Assembly: GCF_055900595.2 (NCBI RefSeq)
Contig: NZ_CM148325.1
Length of the DNA stretch: 64,000 nucleotides
Reading direction: 5' to 3' (one strand)
Positions within the stretch are counted from its first letter, which is position 1; every line of letters starts with the position of its first letter. Shown in pieces: positions 9,001 to 12,000 of this stretch. Made by a program: the position numbers.

Positions 9001-12000
9001 GGAGGCAAATACCAGCAGGCGATACAGGCCGCAACGGCAGCGGTACAGGGACTGGTCGGCGGTAATCTGAGTGCAGCCCTGGCAGGTGGTGCAGCGCCGT
9101 ATATTGCTGAAATTATCAAACAGACCACCCCGGATGGTGCGGGACGTGTGGCAGCTCATGCAGTAGTGAATGCAGCCCTGTCTCTGGCACAGGGTAAGAA
9201 TGCTCTTGCTGGTGCCGCAGGCGCTGCCACCGGCGAGGTGGTGGGAATGATAGCCACACAGATGTACGGTAAGCCGGTGAGTGAACTGAGCGAGACAGAG
9301 AAACAGACGGTCTCCACGCTGGCAACGGTTGCTGCCGGTCTGGCCGGTGGTCTGGTGGGAGACTCAGGTGCTTCAGCGGTAGCCGGAGCACAGTCAGGTA
9401 AGACGACGGTTGAAAACAATATGCTGAACGTGATAGCCACTGAAACAGCGGCTAATACGGCAGCAGCAATAGCTGGTGCTACAGGTAATGCCAGTAGGGA
9501 TACCGGGAATGATAATAGCTGGGATATTGGTGGTGGTTGTGAAGGCTCACGGGAACAGTGTGCTGTACGTGACCCGAGTCGCGATGGTACCCGGGGACCG
9601 GGGCATGTGCTGAATGGCGACAATACAGACGAAAACAAACAGCCGAATCTGGGCAAAGACGTAGCGAGCGCTACGGATAAGGATAAAGCTGAGCTTGGTG
9701 GTGCAGGTGCTGGAACACCGGGTGGGTGGGGACCGGATAATGAAGAAAAAGCCCGTCATCAGGAGGTTCAGCAACAACGATTTGATGAACTGAGTAAAAT
9801 ATATGATAAAAGTCACCCGGTCGGAGAGTTAACAGTGGATGGGCAGACTATCAGGCAGAGTTCGGTAAGTAACCGTTATGGTACGACGAAAGTGTTTGAA
9901 AGCCAGAATCTGACGGATAAACAGATCCACAATTACGCACAACAGCTGGCAGGAGATACACCGCTGAAAGAGGTTCGGCCGGGGATCTATACTGCAAAGC
10001 TGAATAACGGAACATCGATCACGTTGCGGAATTTATCGTCGTCCCAAGAACAAACAGGCGCCAGATGGACTATTGATATTAGAGGGAATCAGCAATTGGC
10101 TGAAATTGCACATAAATACGGACGTCAGGTTGAAATTAAATTTAGGTGAGCATTATGTTGACTGAAAATGAGTATCGTGAAACAGCTGACGCATCGGAGA
10201 TGCAAGCGTTAAGTGGTTTATGGGCTTACAGTATTCCAGATCATGTTGATAGCGCAGTATTCAGTTTTGATGAAAGGAAAAAACTCTTTTTCTGGATATT
10301 TGAGCGCCTTCTGAAAGAAGGGCGCATCAAACTCGCCAAGCACGGTAAGTTTCTGGAAGGCAGTGTTGACGAGCAGGTTGAGCGTTTCCGACAGGCATTT
10401 CCAAAAACAGAAGAAGAGATGGAAGACGGTATCTGGTTTTTTGATGAGAGCTGTCCGGGAGGAGCTGTCTGGGTGCTTGAAGATGGCTCTCTCGAATGGA
10501 CCTGATAAACCCGTTCATAGTGCAGGATGCGGTGCAGCAAGCGTATAACAACGATATGACAGCCTCAGGTTTTGGAACGGGAGGCAAATACCAGCAGGCG
10601 ATACAGGCCGCAACGGCAGCGGTACAGGGACTGGCCGGCGGTAATCTGAGTGCACCCTGGCAGGTGGTGCAGCGTCGTATATTGCTGAAATAATCAAAAA
10701 TACCCCCCCCGGACTGTGCGGGAAGTGTGGTAGCTCATGCCTTGGTGAATGCCGCACTGGCTGTGGCACAGGGAAATAACGCTCTTGCCGGTGCCGCAGG
10801 GGCTGCCACCGGCGAGGTGGTGGGAATGATAGCCACACAGATGTACGGTAAACCGGTCAGTGAACTGAGCGAGGCAGAGAAGCAGACGGTCTCGACACTG
10901 GCAACGGTTGCTGCCGGTCTGGCCGGTGGTCTGGTGGGAGACTCAGGTGCTTCAGCGGTAGCCGGAGCACAGTCTGGTAAGGCGGGGGGCGAAGGTAGTT
11001 GGTTCGTGAATTGGTTGGAATTCTGTAATATTAATAATAAAAATCGCTAAATGGTTATTCGGGGATACTCGATTGAATAAATTTATATATTTTCTGTTAG
11101 CAGGTATTTTATTTTCGGGACAGGTGGATGCAGCACGGGGAAGAAAACCCTGCTCGGGTGCTAAAGGTGGCATTTCACACTGTACGTCAGACGGACGTTT
11201 TGTCTGTAACGACGGAAGTCTGAGTCAGTCGAAACGCTTTTGTTCCGGTTATGGCGTGGCACCCGGCAAACGTCAGGTGAAATCACCTGTCACCACGAAG
11301 CCGGTTCAGAAGAAAAAATCAGTGGCTGTCCGGAAGGTGCCACAACCGTCGGTGGCTGAGAAAGATGAGTCTGTACCGGTCACTGAGCCGCGTAAACCCA
11401 CCTGTGCGCCGCTTTATATGGCCAGCAAACCCGGATTCACGCATCTGCCTATTTGTTCCGGTAATCAGTATTAATCTGACACTGAAATAGCAGAGGCATC
11501 TGTGCTCAGCCTGCAGTTAACCCTGTATTGGCGAGCATCATAAAGCCGGACATCCTTCCGGGTATAAATATTTCCGGAGGGCGTTAATCAGAAATATTCA
11601 GTTACGGAGAAGGAAAATAAAGGAAAGTCATGGCAGGAAGAAAAAAAAGATGATAATGCAGCGGGATTTGTCCTGATTTTAGTTTGCGTTATTCTCTGGG
11701 GGATTTATGTGGCGGTCAGGACGCTGATAAACCTTAATGAGCGCTTTATTGATGCAGTATCGAATCCGGCAGGTATTATTGGTTTGTTTTTTGGTTTGCT
11801 TACCGTATTTGCAATTTTATTTCGTTTTTTTATTTACCGGAGACTCAGAAAGAAAACAGCAGCATTTGAGCAGGCCGTTTCAGAGCTGGTTCAGAGAGAA
11901 CGGGATTTTAATGAAACTGTCAATGCCGCTATAGCCCGGGGAATACGACAGGAAAAGGAGCAGCTTGCCAGACGTCGTGAGGAATTTCATACCACCAGAA

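Follow-up and report, generated by a model that had tools for sequence, protein, structure and literature searches.

The gene at 11073..11474 on the plus strand of the window (the whole 64,000-nucleotide stretch of contig NZ_CM148325.1, NCBI RefSeq assembly GCF_055900595.2, that was analysed) is not part of the CDI module that it follows, and its link with CDI is secondary. We hold with moderate confidence that the best explanation overall is a long-form, envelope-binding protein of the YdcA family (YdcA-long) from a T6SS island, the gene being a remnant of the accessory end of an island of the Sci-1 type. The preliminary description had taken the gene to encode a 133-aa Cys-containing protein with a clear signal peptide and a Lys/Pro-rich middle, located directly after an orphan CDI module, and each of these features was recovered here. 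The ORF has 133 codons plus a stop, begins with TTG 22 nt past the stop at 11050 and ends with TAA; its product is identical to RefSeq WP_001308009.1, named "YdcA family protein". A Shine-Dalgarno-like GGGGA (11061..11065, plus strand), read from the sequence, lies 7 nt 5' of the TTG. No further in-frame Met occurs before residue 116, so only the TTG can yield the N-terminal peptide; in the orthologues of EAEC 042, E. coli 55989 and Citrobacter the equivalent codon is ATG. A promoter and terminator scan near the gene returned nothing over the shuffle expectation.

Four segments, all on the plus strand, were distinguished in the protein. Residues 1-20 (11073..11132) form a predicted Sec-type signal peptide, with the n-region MNK, a 13-residue hydrophobic core (Kyte-Doolittle peak 2.6) and predicted cleavage between VDA and AR, the V-D-A occupying the -3/-1 positions. 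The pattern of the cleavage region, Q-A-[DE]-A before the cut and ARGR after it, was kept across an alignment of 27 orthologues, and since the signal peptide contains no Cys there is no lipobox. The YdcA domain (aa 21-61, 11133..11255) is near-invariant, carries four invariant Cys and resembles one lobe of the Legionella protein Dis2. The linker (aa 62-108, 11256..11396) is basic, variable and predicted to be disordered; it is rich in K, R, P, S, T and Q, with 12 K+R and 7 P in 47 residues and a pI of 10.5, and among orthologues its length is kept while its sequence varies. The C-terminal motif (aa 109-133, 11397..11471) comprises 25 invariant residues, including two invariant Cys. All six Cys of the protein (27, 37, 45, 57, 111, and 128) were invariant in the orthologue alignment, and the mature product would be a basic protein of about 113 aa. 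The full-length AlphaFold model was poor (pLDDT 57.8 overall and about 40 in the linker) and was therefore left out of the fold search.

Membership of the YdcA family was indicated by several profiles. NCBIfam PRK10040 (YdcA) matched aa 1-58 (E 7.7e-22), the N-domain matched phrog_6000 (E 3.5e-20), and a precomputed PF27300 (YdcA) match is listed for all homologues; a Pfam release predating PF27300 gave no match at E <= 10 for the protein or for the isolated domain. The domain consensus was built from 79 diverse sequences, and all eight columns invariant in that alignment (C8, G13, G14, C18, C26, G29, S32, and C38) are present in YdcA-long, as is the four-Cys motif of the family, PCSGxKGGIxHC-x(2-4)-G-x-F-[VI]-C-N-D-G-S-x-S-x-S-K-x-x-C. 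Its NCBIfam equivalog scores (77, 68, and 48 bits) lie under the respective cut-offs (118, 93, and 168), and YdcA-long is hence no equivalog of the 57-aa YdcA. DUF3761, the name of one UniRef entry, was rejected, there being no PF12587 match. Full-length homologues with 58-70% identity occur across many genera of Enterobacterales, and 104 E. coli genomes carry the ORF intact. Against the allele of E. coli 55989, dN/dS was 0.05 for the N-domain, 0 for the C-terminal motif (dN = 0) and 0.40 for the linker. No conserved neighbourhood or partner was found for the short YdcA genes. The exceptions were synteny at the level of the genus and, for a few copies in alpha- and beta-proteobacteria, an adjacent SNase-like nuclease.

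YdcA-long has its native site within T6SS clusters of the Sci-1 type, where it lies between tssE and tagA; this position was found in at least 10 genera. Such clusters were found in Escherichia (including EAEC 042), Citrobacter, Klebsiella, Salmonella, Yersinia, Serratia, and Pantoea, and the order tssM-tssA-tssF-tssG-tssJ-tssE-(156-aa gene)-YdcA-long-T5orf172-(NERD helicase)-ImpA_N/VasL was seen in Citrobacter, Klebsiella, Pantoea, Yersinia, Serratia, E. coli 55989, and the Sci-1 cluster of EAEC 042. The 156-aa gene, found upstream in clusters outside E. coli, was considered as an effector or partner and set aside, being absent from E. coli and having no signal peptide; it gave no match in Pfam, PADLOC or PHROG. 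In the species-level scan, T6SS genes lay within 10 kb in 14 of the 17 long-form loci, and the association persisted where TssG identity was down to 48-53%. Among the 104 E. coli genomes with the gene, tssE was directly upstream in 58 and the CDI junction in 32.

The window belongs to the latter arrangement: a degenerate CDI locus (3986..10505) stands where tssB-tssE were, in place of the T6SS core, and the flanks on either side are the same. EAEC 042 and the window-type strains have in common a left flank of a hypothetical gene and DUF4222 and a right flank running from YdcA to tagA; as these flanks are the same, the CDI locus replaced the T6SS core block. All features of the locus are on the plus strand. 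The CDI locus consists of cdiB (3986-5725), an HlyC-type acyltransferase (5735-6172), an N-terminally truncated cdiA (6124-10149) and a DUF596 immunity candidate (10146-10505). It is followed by an orphan cdiA pre-toxin fragment (10496..11050) in two frames (ORFs 10496-10693 and 10727-11050) and by a junction sequence (10985..11072, start approximate), which runs from the end of the cdiA-like homology to the start of YdcA-long; the orphan ORF takes its tail from this junction, and YdcA-long its ribosome-binding site. Downstream lie the conserved neighbour, a homologue of SNIPE/PD-lambda-1 (11630..12875) with two TM helices, a coiled coil and a T5orf172/GIY-YIG domain; a NERD + UvrD-type helicase (13069..14856), the optional third gene of the cassette; a 101-aa hypothetical gene (14922..15227), which precedes tagA in E. 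coli clusters; and an intact ImpA_N + VasL protein, a T6SS accessory of the TagA type (15270..16643), with which the former T6SS cluster ends on the right. None of these associations was obligate: T6SS clusters occur without YdcA-long, YdcA-long occurs without T6SS (L028-L030), and SNIPE homologues occur without YdcA-long.

YdcA-long is most likely a disulfide-locked periplasmic protein that binds envelope components. It would be exported by Sec and then oxidised in a DsbA-type reaction, with two disulfides forming in the N-domain and a third in the C-loop. Since no catalytic motif is present, the protein probably acts by binding. Its YdcA domain would attach to a structure of the envelope close to the outer membrane, as Dis2 does in the Dot/Icm outer-membrane cap, and the linker, flexible and basic, would allow the invariant C-loop to contact another envelope partner that is itself highly conserved. 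For the whole tssE-tagA cassette (YdcA-long, SNIPE, and, optionally, NERD/UvrD), the role that we favour is that of an accessory or guard at the level of the envelope; YdcA modules also occur as prophage morons, and SNIPE acts at the membrane on phage DNA as it enters. Three readings are of similar and modest probability: a general envelope or stress protein unlinked to its neighbours is slightly ahead, a guard against phage entry comes next and an accessory of the T6SS membrane complex follows closely. The extreme conservation of YdcA-long argues against direct binding of fast-evolving phage proteins.

According to a narrower proposal, YdcA-long would be a dedicated T6SS accessory, located near the outer membrane on the periplasmic part of the TssJ-TssM(-TagL) complex, where by analogy with Dis2 in the Dot/Icm cap it might aid assembly or anchoring. 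Its placement between bona fide tssE and tagA in many genera, despite deep divergence of the clusters, agrees with this, as does the near confinement of the long form to T6SS clusters. So does the homology with Dis2; Dot/Icm also contains IcmF, a homologue of TssM (PMC8486379, Table 2). However, a Tag component would be expected in every cluster of its T6SS subtype, and E. coli RM14721 has an equivalent cluster in which tssE is followed by the 101-aa gene and tagA, with YdcA-long, SNIPE and the NERD helicase missing together. In a spread sample of E. coli, 3 of the 16 rows that cover tssJ-tssE also lacked the tssE-to-YdcA intergenic region. Moreover, YdcA-long is better conserved than TssJ (51-94%) or TssE (76-96%), which is unexpected for a co-evolving partner, it stays intact where the T6SS core is gone (the window and 32 E. 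coli genomes), and its relatives are prophage morons. We regard a dedicated T6SS accessory as unlikely, if still worth entertaining. Our literature search found nothing on the long form, on EC042_4546 (the EAEC 042 tag inferred by counting from TssA = EC042_4540) or on a link between T5orf172 and T6SS.

A second narrow proposal pairs YdcA-long, as the periplasmic member, with the two-TM SNIPE homologue next to it in a two-compartment defence against phage entry, in which YdcA-long would mark or bind the periplasmic injection site and the nuclease would cut the entering DNA. The downstream neighbour matched PADLOC PD-Lambda-1 (E 2e-86), and the two genes are adjacent and co-oriented, with a gap of about 78 bp. 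YdcA-long was upstream in all four close SNIPE orthologues in IMG/VR that had upstream sequence; as these represent one locus type, they are not independent. The presence or absence of the cassette as a block (RM14721), the published action of SNIPE at the membrane, and YdcA domains elsewhere that are fused to nucleases (P0175) or lie beside them (L044 and L083) fit such a partnership as well. On the other hand, SNIPE works alone, and its nuclease and DUF4041 domains are cytoplasmic. Co-occurrence with SNIPE was not obligate, since no YdcA gene accompanied the distant two-TM SNIPE homologues L099 and L100 on phage-like contigs, and YdcA-long persisted in the 7 of 17 long-form loci where SNIPE was degraded or absent. 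The SNIPE homologue of the window is itself frameshifted by an A8 run (about 11641-11648), which leaves a 388-aa ORF from GTG 11709. We consider the partnership doubtful.

The weakest of the functional proposals is immunity, either as an orphan or unusual periplasmic CDI immunity protein or against a T6SS effector that acts in the periplasm, and we consider it very improbable. YdcA-long does directly follow a cdiA-derived fragment, and T6SS effectors can have periplasmic immunity proteins that carry signal peptides (e.g., the Tli1 lipoproteins in the same EAEC cluster). The preliminary description had placed the gene in the slot of an expected orphan immunity gene, a premise that proved wrong. 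The orphan fragment tracks the cdiA pre-toxin to ...AGAQSGK and diverges two residues before VENN; it covers only positions 1-42 of the 52 of the PT-VENN profile, and neither the sequence nor a profile search of 10496-11050 revealed a VENN motif or a CT/toxin domain. As the fragment encodes no toxin, there is no reason to expect an orphan immunity gene behind it. The suggested check for co-occurrence with cdi loci was also negative, CdiA, CdiB or DUF596 being found within 10 kb in none of the 72 species-representative loci. No effector gene adjoins YdcA-long in T6SS clusters, and immunity proteins are typically diverse, the reverse of the near-invariant domains that YdcA-long shows from genus to genus. 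Of the two options offered at the outset, the evidence thus supports an unrelated exported factor and does not support an unusual immunity protein of the periplasm. That the ORF is spurious, or is what remains of a decaying pseudogene without product, as the TTG start, the degenerate neighbours (truncated cdiA, orphan fragment, and frameshifted SNIPE) and the many chance ORFs of more than 100 aa in the region might suggest, is hardly credible given the good Shine-Dalgarno sequence, strong purifying selection, an intact frame in 104 E. coli genomes and full-length homologues in many genera, a conservation that already contradicts it.

To return to the envelope-binding reading, its structural side rests on the likeness to Dis2 (Lpg0823; PDB 7MUC/7MUD chain AN). 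A search of the PDB with the full profile reached 7muc_AN at E 3.2e-4; the profile of the domain by itself placed Dis2 at E 0.0046, level with LDL-receptor repeats, and the C-terminal motif searched alone found nothing in the PDB. The hhalign comparison of YdcA with Dis2 gave a probability of 94.8%, and the best two PDB matches in Foldseek were 7mud_AN and 7muc_AN (probability 0.85, TM 0.53, 38-42% identity). The LDL-receptor class A repeats were treated as noise of the Cys pattern despite their similar domain-only score, because only Dis2 has GGI...C...VCN[DN]G and recurs in hhalign and Foldseek; Dis2 was the only meaningful PDB match by profile, hhalign and Foldseek. A broader generalisation would be that disulfide knots of the YdcA/Dis2 type form a general class of small periplasmic modules docking on outer-membrane-proximal parts of envelope-spanning machines, the long form being an overlooked periplasmic component of the Sci-1 T6SS region, either a subunit or anchor of TssJLM or the periplasmic half of a SNIPE-based phage-entry defence. 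We give this generalisation little credence at present; if true, it would provide the first homologues and a testable function for Dis2.

For the annotation of the window, the results remove a false lead, YdcA-long being no CDI immunity gene. They also draw attention to the intensively studied Sci-1 cluster of EAEC, in which the gene right after tssE encodes a conserved, predicted-exported protein on which we found no published study; to a YdcA-long gene that travels with the phage-entry nuclease SNIPE; and to a YdcA domain in which Dis2, a protein reported without structural homologues, seems to gain its first recognised relative. These three points are leads, and as a protein YdcA-long is no more than an ordinary representative of an uncharacterised family.

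Compared with known systems, YdcA-long resembles CdiI proteins solely in its position 3' of cdiA-derived sequence; it differs from them in its predicted signal peptide, in lacking an upstream cognate CdiA-CT and cdi co-occurrence elsewhere, and in being highly conserved rather than polymorphic. Prophage morons and small envelope proteins of the superinfection-exclusion type offer another parallel. In Haemophilus phage HP2, a short YdcA ORF comes after cI in the pL lysogeny operon, short YdcA genes also occur in Moraxella and Acinetobacter phages, and a protein of the C-motif type, with the related motif on a different N-domain, follows the antiterminator Q in a lambdoid prophage. However, the window gene sits in a chromosomal T6SS/defence island and not in a prophage, and proteins of the YdcA family are not known to have an exclusion phenotype. 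With SNIPE/PD-lambda-1 the likeness belongs to the neighbour, which has the membrane anchor, the coiled coil/DUF4041 region and the GIY-YIG layout of SNIPE; SNIPE is a single-gene system, and YdcA-long lies outside its definition and is absent beside its more distant homologues.

The gene for Dis2 lies outside the dot/icm locus. Dis2 and YdcA-long have in common the motif C-x3-GGI-x2-C...G-x-x-V-C-N-[DN]-G-x-x-S, although the similarity is marginal. Dis2 is exported, disulfide-pinned and located near the outer membrane in an envelope-spanning secretion machine, and YdcA-long is predicted to be exported and has six Cys. Dis2 has two lobes and five disulfides, whereas YdcA-long combines a single lobe, for which two disulfides are predicted, with a linker and a C-loop. 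Dis2 is part of a T4BSS, and no T4BSS genes were found in the neighbourhood of YdcA-long. The paper on Dis2 describes it as outer-membrane-proximal, disulfide-pinned and two-lobed and does not place its gene in the dot/icm locus (PMC8486379). Among the closest known proteins is YdcA of E. coli K-12 (b1419), which has a signal sequence, is predicted to be periplasmic and is of unknown function (PMC11340327). Like YdcA-long, it consists of a signal peptide followed by the CSGxKGGIxHC...FVCNDGSxSxSKxxC module. It has 57 aa and ends right after the domain, to which YdcA-long adds the 47-aa basic linker and the 25-aa Cys-loop. Finally, nearly all E. coli carry ydcA (with matches in 5025 of 5426 genomes, almost all of them to ydcA), while the long form is present in 104 E. 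coli genomes and sits in the T6SS island.

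The 133-aa open reading frame was found at 11073-11474 on the plus strand, exactly as a preliminary description had placed it. It has a TTG start, 133 codons and a TAA stop, with a GGGGA Shine-Dalgarno sequence 7 nt 5' of the start, and 22 nt separate it from the stop of the preceding cdiA-derived fragment. The elements of the proposed Sec signal peptide (n-region MNK, a 13-residue hydrophobic core and V-D-A|A at the predicted cleavage site) were all present at the N-terminus, which has no lipobox. The protein, hereafter YdcA-long, contains six Cys, and its Lys/Pro-rich middle was borne out by residues 62-108 (12 Lys/Arg, 7 Pro, pI 10.5). 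An identical protein exists in RefSeq (WP_001308009.1), and full-length homologues (58-70% identity) occur in Citrobacter, Klebsiella, Salmonella arizonae, Enterobacter, Pantoea, Yersinia, Serratia and other genera. Against the E. coli 55989 allele, dN/dS came to 0.05 in the N-domain and 0.28 in the signal peptide; the linker reached 0.40 and the C-terminal motif 0. A chance ORF is ruled out by the identical RefSeq protein, the homologues across genera and the low dN/dS, so the earlier concern about a spurious frame falls.

The architecture was read from an alignment of 27 orthologues. The signal peptide varies in sequence, keeps its hydrophobicity and ends Q-A-[DE]-A|ARGR; the 4-Cys domain (41 residues) is almost invariant; the linker (~47 residues) drifts in sequence at constant length and basic Lys/Ser/Thr/Pro/Gln composition; and the C-terminal motif, with 2 Cys, is invariant with one [YF] position. 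NCBIfam models of E. coli K-12 YdcA matched the first 58 residues (E 7.7e-22); the scores stay under the equivalog cut-offs, since the K-12 protein has just 57 aa. A precomputed match to Pfam PF27300 (named YdcA) is listed for all homologues; the Pfam copy searched here lacks that model. K-12 YdcA is described only as having a signal sequence, a predicted periplasmic location and an unknown function (PMC11340327), and deletion of ydcA in E. coli W causes sensitivity to 3-hydroxypropionate (PMC7642389). An exhaustive profile search gave 374 clusters at 50% identity, in which the 4-Cys module stands alone behind a leader of the signal-peptide type (proteins with a median of 94 aa), occurs in up to three tandem copies (P0130) or is joined to other domains. 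The complete long form amounts to about one of these clusters, in Enterobacterales only. Short forms in Pseudomonas and Paracidovorax (L067 3953-4309, L084 9896-10279) bear a second Cys-rich tail, CxCxxGxxCxGPRGGxYCxTxSGxKSYxxK, which we take to resemble the PBCV basic adaptor motif.

Searched against the PDB, the full YdcA profile matched a single sequence (E 3.2e-4), chain AN of 7MUC/7MUD, and hit the second half of that chain once more, less strongly. Its modelled residues (40-115) and two sequence-similar halves agree with Dis2 (Lpg0823) of the Legionella Dot/Icm T4SS cap, which is outer-membrane-proximal, has two similar lobes and five disulfides, is present in 13 copies and was described as having no structural homologues (PMC8486379). 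A 79-sequence domain profile aligned to the Dis2 segment with 94.8% probability in hhalign. In Foldseek, the domain-only AlphaFold model (pLDDT 71) matched the two Dis2 chains best among PDB entries (probability 0.85, TM 0.53, identity 38-42%), the runners-up reaching a probability of at most 0.09. Judged by profiles and predicted fold, the YdcA domain is probably homologous to a Dis2 lobe.

What is established for YdcA-long comprises a predicted signal peptide, invariant Cys pairs, a modular architecture, purifying selection on the end modules and a home in the tssE-tagA cassette. The protein would be exported by Sec, form its disulfides in the periplasm and act non-catalytically as a bivalent binder: its Dis2-like domain would contact a structure close to the outer membrane, and its C-loop a second envelope component that is itself highly conserved. 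A conserved host partner is suggested because the end modules are better conserved than TssJ or TssE; we infer that a host component suits this better than would a rapidly evolving protein of a phage or of the T6SS. The purposes considered here were weighed by a rough split. The one that tentatively stands best is a general envelope role, functionally independent of the neighbouring genes.

A guard against phage entry, with or without the adjacent nuclease, is possible and somewhat more doubtful. The downstream T5orf172 protein matched PADLOC PD-Lambda-1 (E 2e-86), now called SNIPE, an inner-membrane-anchored GIY-YIG nuclease that cleaves phage DNA at injection and has a diversified N-terminal region, with two TM helices in 7% of homologues (bioRxiv 10.1101/2025.11.03.685801). 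In the intact orthologue (414 aa), a ~19-residue loop separates two predicted TM helices, and the positive-inside rule would put the coiled coil and nuclease domain in the cytoplasm. In the window the gene is frameshifted at about 11641-11648 (in 11630-11720), in an A8 run where A7 would hold the frame; the N-terminus is truncated, the first TM helix is gone and a 388-aa ORF restarts at GTG 11709. This homopolymer tract could be phase-variable. RefSeq flags SNIPE as frameshifted in some strains and annotates a short form in others. In PADLOC, the NERD/UvrD helicase matches a candidate entry, and the gene that comes next (16785-18491) encodes an OLD-family nuclease; the region is therefore a defence island. 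The stretch noted downstream (16785-30774) also includes a PAPS-reductase/DUF3440 protein (19508-20542), an IS3-type integrase (20840-21658) and type I restriction R and M subunits (24877-29549), and a tRNA-Phe gene on the minus strand (49814-49889) probably marks the attachment site of the island.

The Sci-1-type T6SS cluster of E. coli RM14721 (L089 7540-9780) runs straight from tssE to the 101-aa gene and tagA, and YdcA-long, SNIPE and the helicase are jointly missing; these three thus behave as a cassette. Strain P393-F10 carries a cluster without the cassette and, elsewhere in the genome, the CDI-YdcA-long locus. YdcA-long lay upstream of close two-TM SNIPE orthologues in all four IMG/VR contigs with upstream sequence, which are not independent cases because all are one locus type. 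More distant two-TM homologues in phage-like contexts (L099, L100) have no YdcA gene, and in a species-level scan (one GTDB genome per species; 72 loci encoding a relative) SNIPE was degraded or missing at 7 of 17 long-form loci, with YdcA-long intact. Hence the link is obligate in neither direction.

Relatives were also found in phages. The N-domain matches phrog_6000, and tblastn recovered short YdcA ORFs from Haemophilus phages HP2 and S2, 20 Moraxella catarrhalis phages, and Acinetobacter and Pseudomonas phages. The unannotated HP2 ORF (L090 2501-2674; record 2495-2668) lies in the pL lysogeny operon, directly after cI and ahead of orf1 and int; the HP2, S2 and Moraxella ORFs suggest a lysogen-expressed exported protein. 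P0228 (137 aa, L091 2515-2928), a predicted exported protein whose gene is the next one after antiterminator Q of a lambdoid prophage, has a His-rich N-domain with 2 Cys, unrelated to YdcA, and a closely related C-terminal motif (RCAPLYMAHKPGYTNLPIC), so that the motif is a separate portable module. Taken with the phage ORFs, both modules thus also circulate as prophage morons. Pairing of YdcA with nucleases recurs, in Methylobacterium (L044 10001-10881, L083 10001-10422), where a short YdcA gene immediately precedes a secreted SNase-like nuclease gene, and in P0175 (405 aa), a fusion to a DRGH-type endonuclease.

YdcA-long has its native home in Sci-1-type T6SS clusters. An accessory role in the T6SS membrane complex is a little less likely than the phage-entry guard. 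The order tssM-tssA-(PAAR effector/immunity)-tssF-tssG-tssJ-tssE-(156-aa gene)-YdcA-long-T5orf172-(NERD/UvrD helicase)-ImpA_N/VasL was seen in Citrobacter braakii, Klebsiella quasipneumoniae, Pantoea, Yersinia and Serratia. E. coli 55989 matches it minus the 156-aa gene, and the Sci-1 cluster of EAEC 042 (bearing Tle1/Tli1) shares the order too, with the orthologue after tssE. In most clusters outside E. coli, the conserved 156-aa cytoplasmic protein (L006 7408-7878) is encoded between tssE and YdcA-long; it is absent from E. coli and had no Pfam, PADLOC or PHROG match. In the species-level scan, T6SS genes lay within 10 kb of 14 of 17 long-form loci and 0 of about 55 short-form loci, and the association holds between cluster lineages with TssG identity down to 48-53%. 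Copies in Ewingella, Yersinia artesiana (in an integrase/cI element) and Trabulsiella are located away from T6SS; the link is not obligate. In EAEC 042, TssA is EC042_4540 (PMC6745524). Counting onwards from it would assign EC042_4546 to the YdcA-long orthologue and EC042_4550 to the ImpA_N/VasL gene. This TagA-type ORF is intact in EAEC 042 (L087 14335-15702, 455 codons) and in the window (15270-16643, 457 codons). We assume EC042_4550 to be TagA. RefSeq splits the ORF of EAEC 042, 55989 and others into three pseudogene pieces, one labelled POTRA domain, which looks like an annotation artefact.

The left T6SS flank of EAEC 042, a 234-bp hypothetical gene and a DUF4222 gene, sits before cdiB in window-type strains. 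This common flank indicates, from sequence comparison, that a CDI locus replaced the tssB-tssE block and left behind YdcA-long, the T5orf172 gene, the helicase, the 101-aa gene and tagA. The main cdiA ORF (6124-10149, 1341 aa, haemagglutinin repeats and PT-VENN) starts within the 3' end of an HlyC/RTX-type toxin-activating lysine acyltransferase gene (5735-6172, between cdiB and cdiA). It has neither signal peptide nor TPS (haemagglutination activity) secretion domain; without the latter it is N-terminally truncated, and the system is probably non-functional. Strain GmM062 has a far longer cdiA at the same locus. The DUF596 gene directly after cdiA (10146-10505) is likely the cognate immunity gene. 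The following fragment (10496-11050) repeats the pre-toxin region through ...AGAQSGK, departs from it two residues short of VENN, continues for 20 unrelated codons to a stop, and aligns to the PT-VENN profile over positions 1-42 of 52. It encodes no toxin, and therefore the orphan immunity gene that had been expected 3' of it loses its premise. Nor did co-occurrence favour the idea: none of the 72 species-level loci had a tblastn match to CdiA, CdiB or DUF596 within 10 kb. Among 5,426 complete E. coli genomes (gene counted at >=80% coverage), 104 carry YdcA-long, 32 of them with the VENN-fragment junction and 58 with tssE directly upstream. An immunity protein, including the periplasmic one suggested earlier, is thus very improbable. 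In some E. coli genomes a deletion joins the acyltransferase gene, at its 3' end, with the final 100 bp of YdcA-long (H118-H120; chimeric P0192).

We found no published description of the long-form architecture, of YdcA-long fixed after tssE in Sci-1-type T6SS beside a SNIPE homologue, or of the likely relationship between the YdcA domain and Dis2. The existence of the protein is not new, as RefSeq already names it a YdcA-family member; its architecture, its place after tssE and the probable Dis2 kinship are leads.
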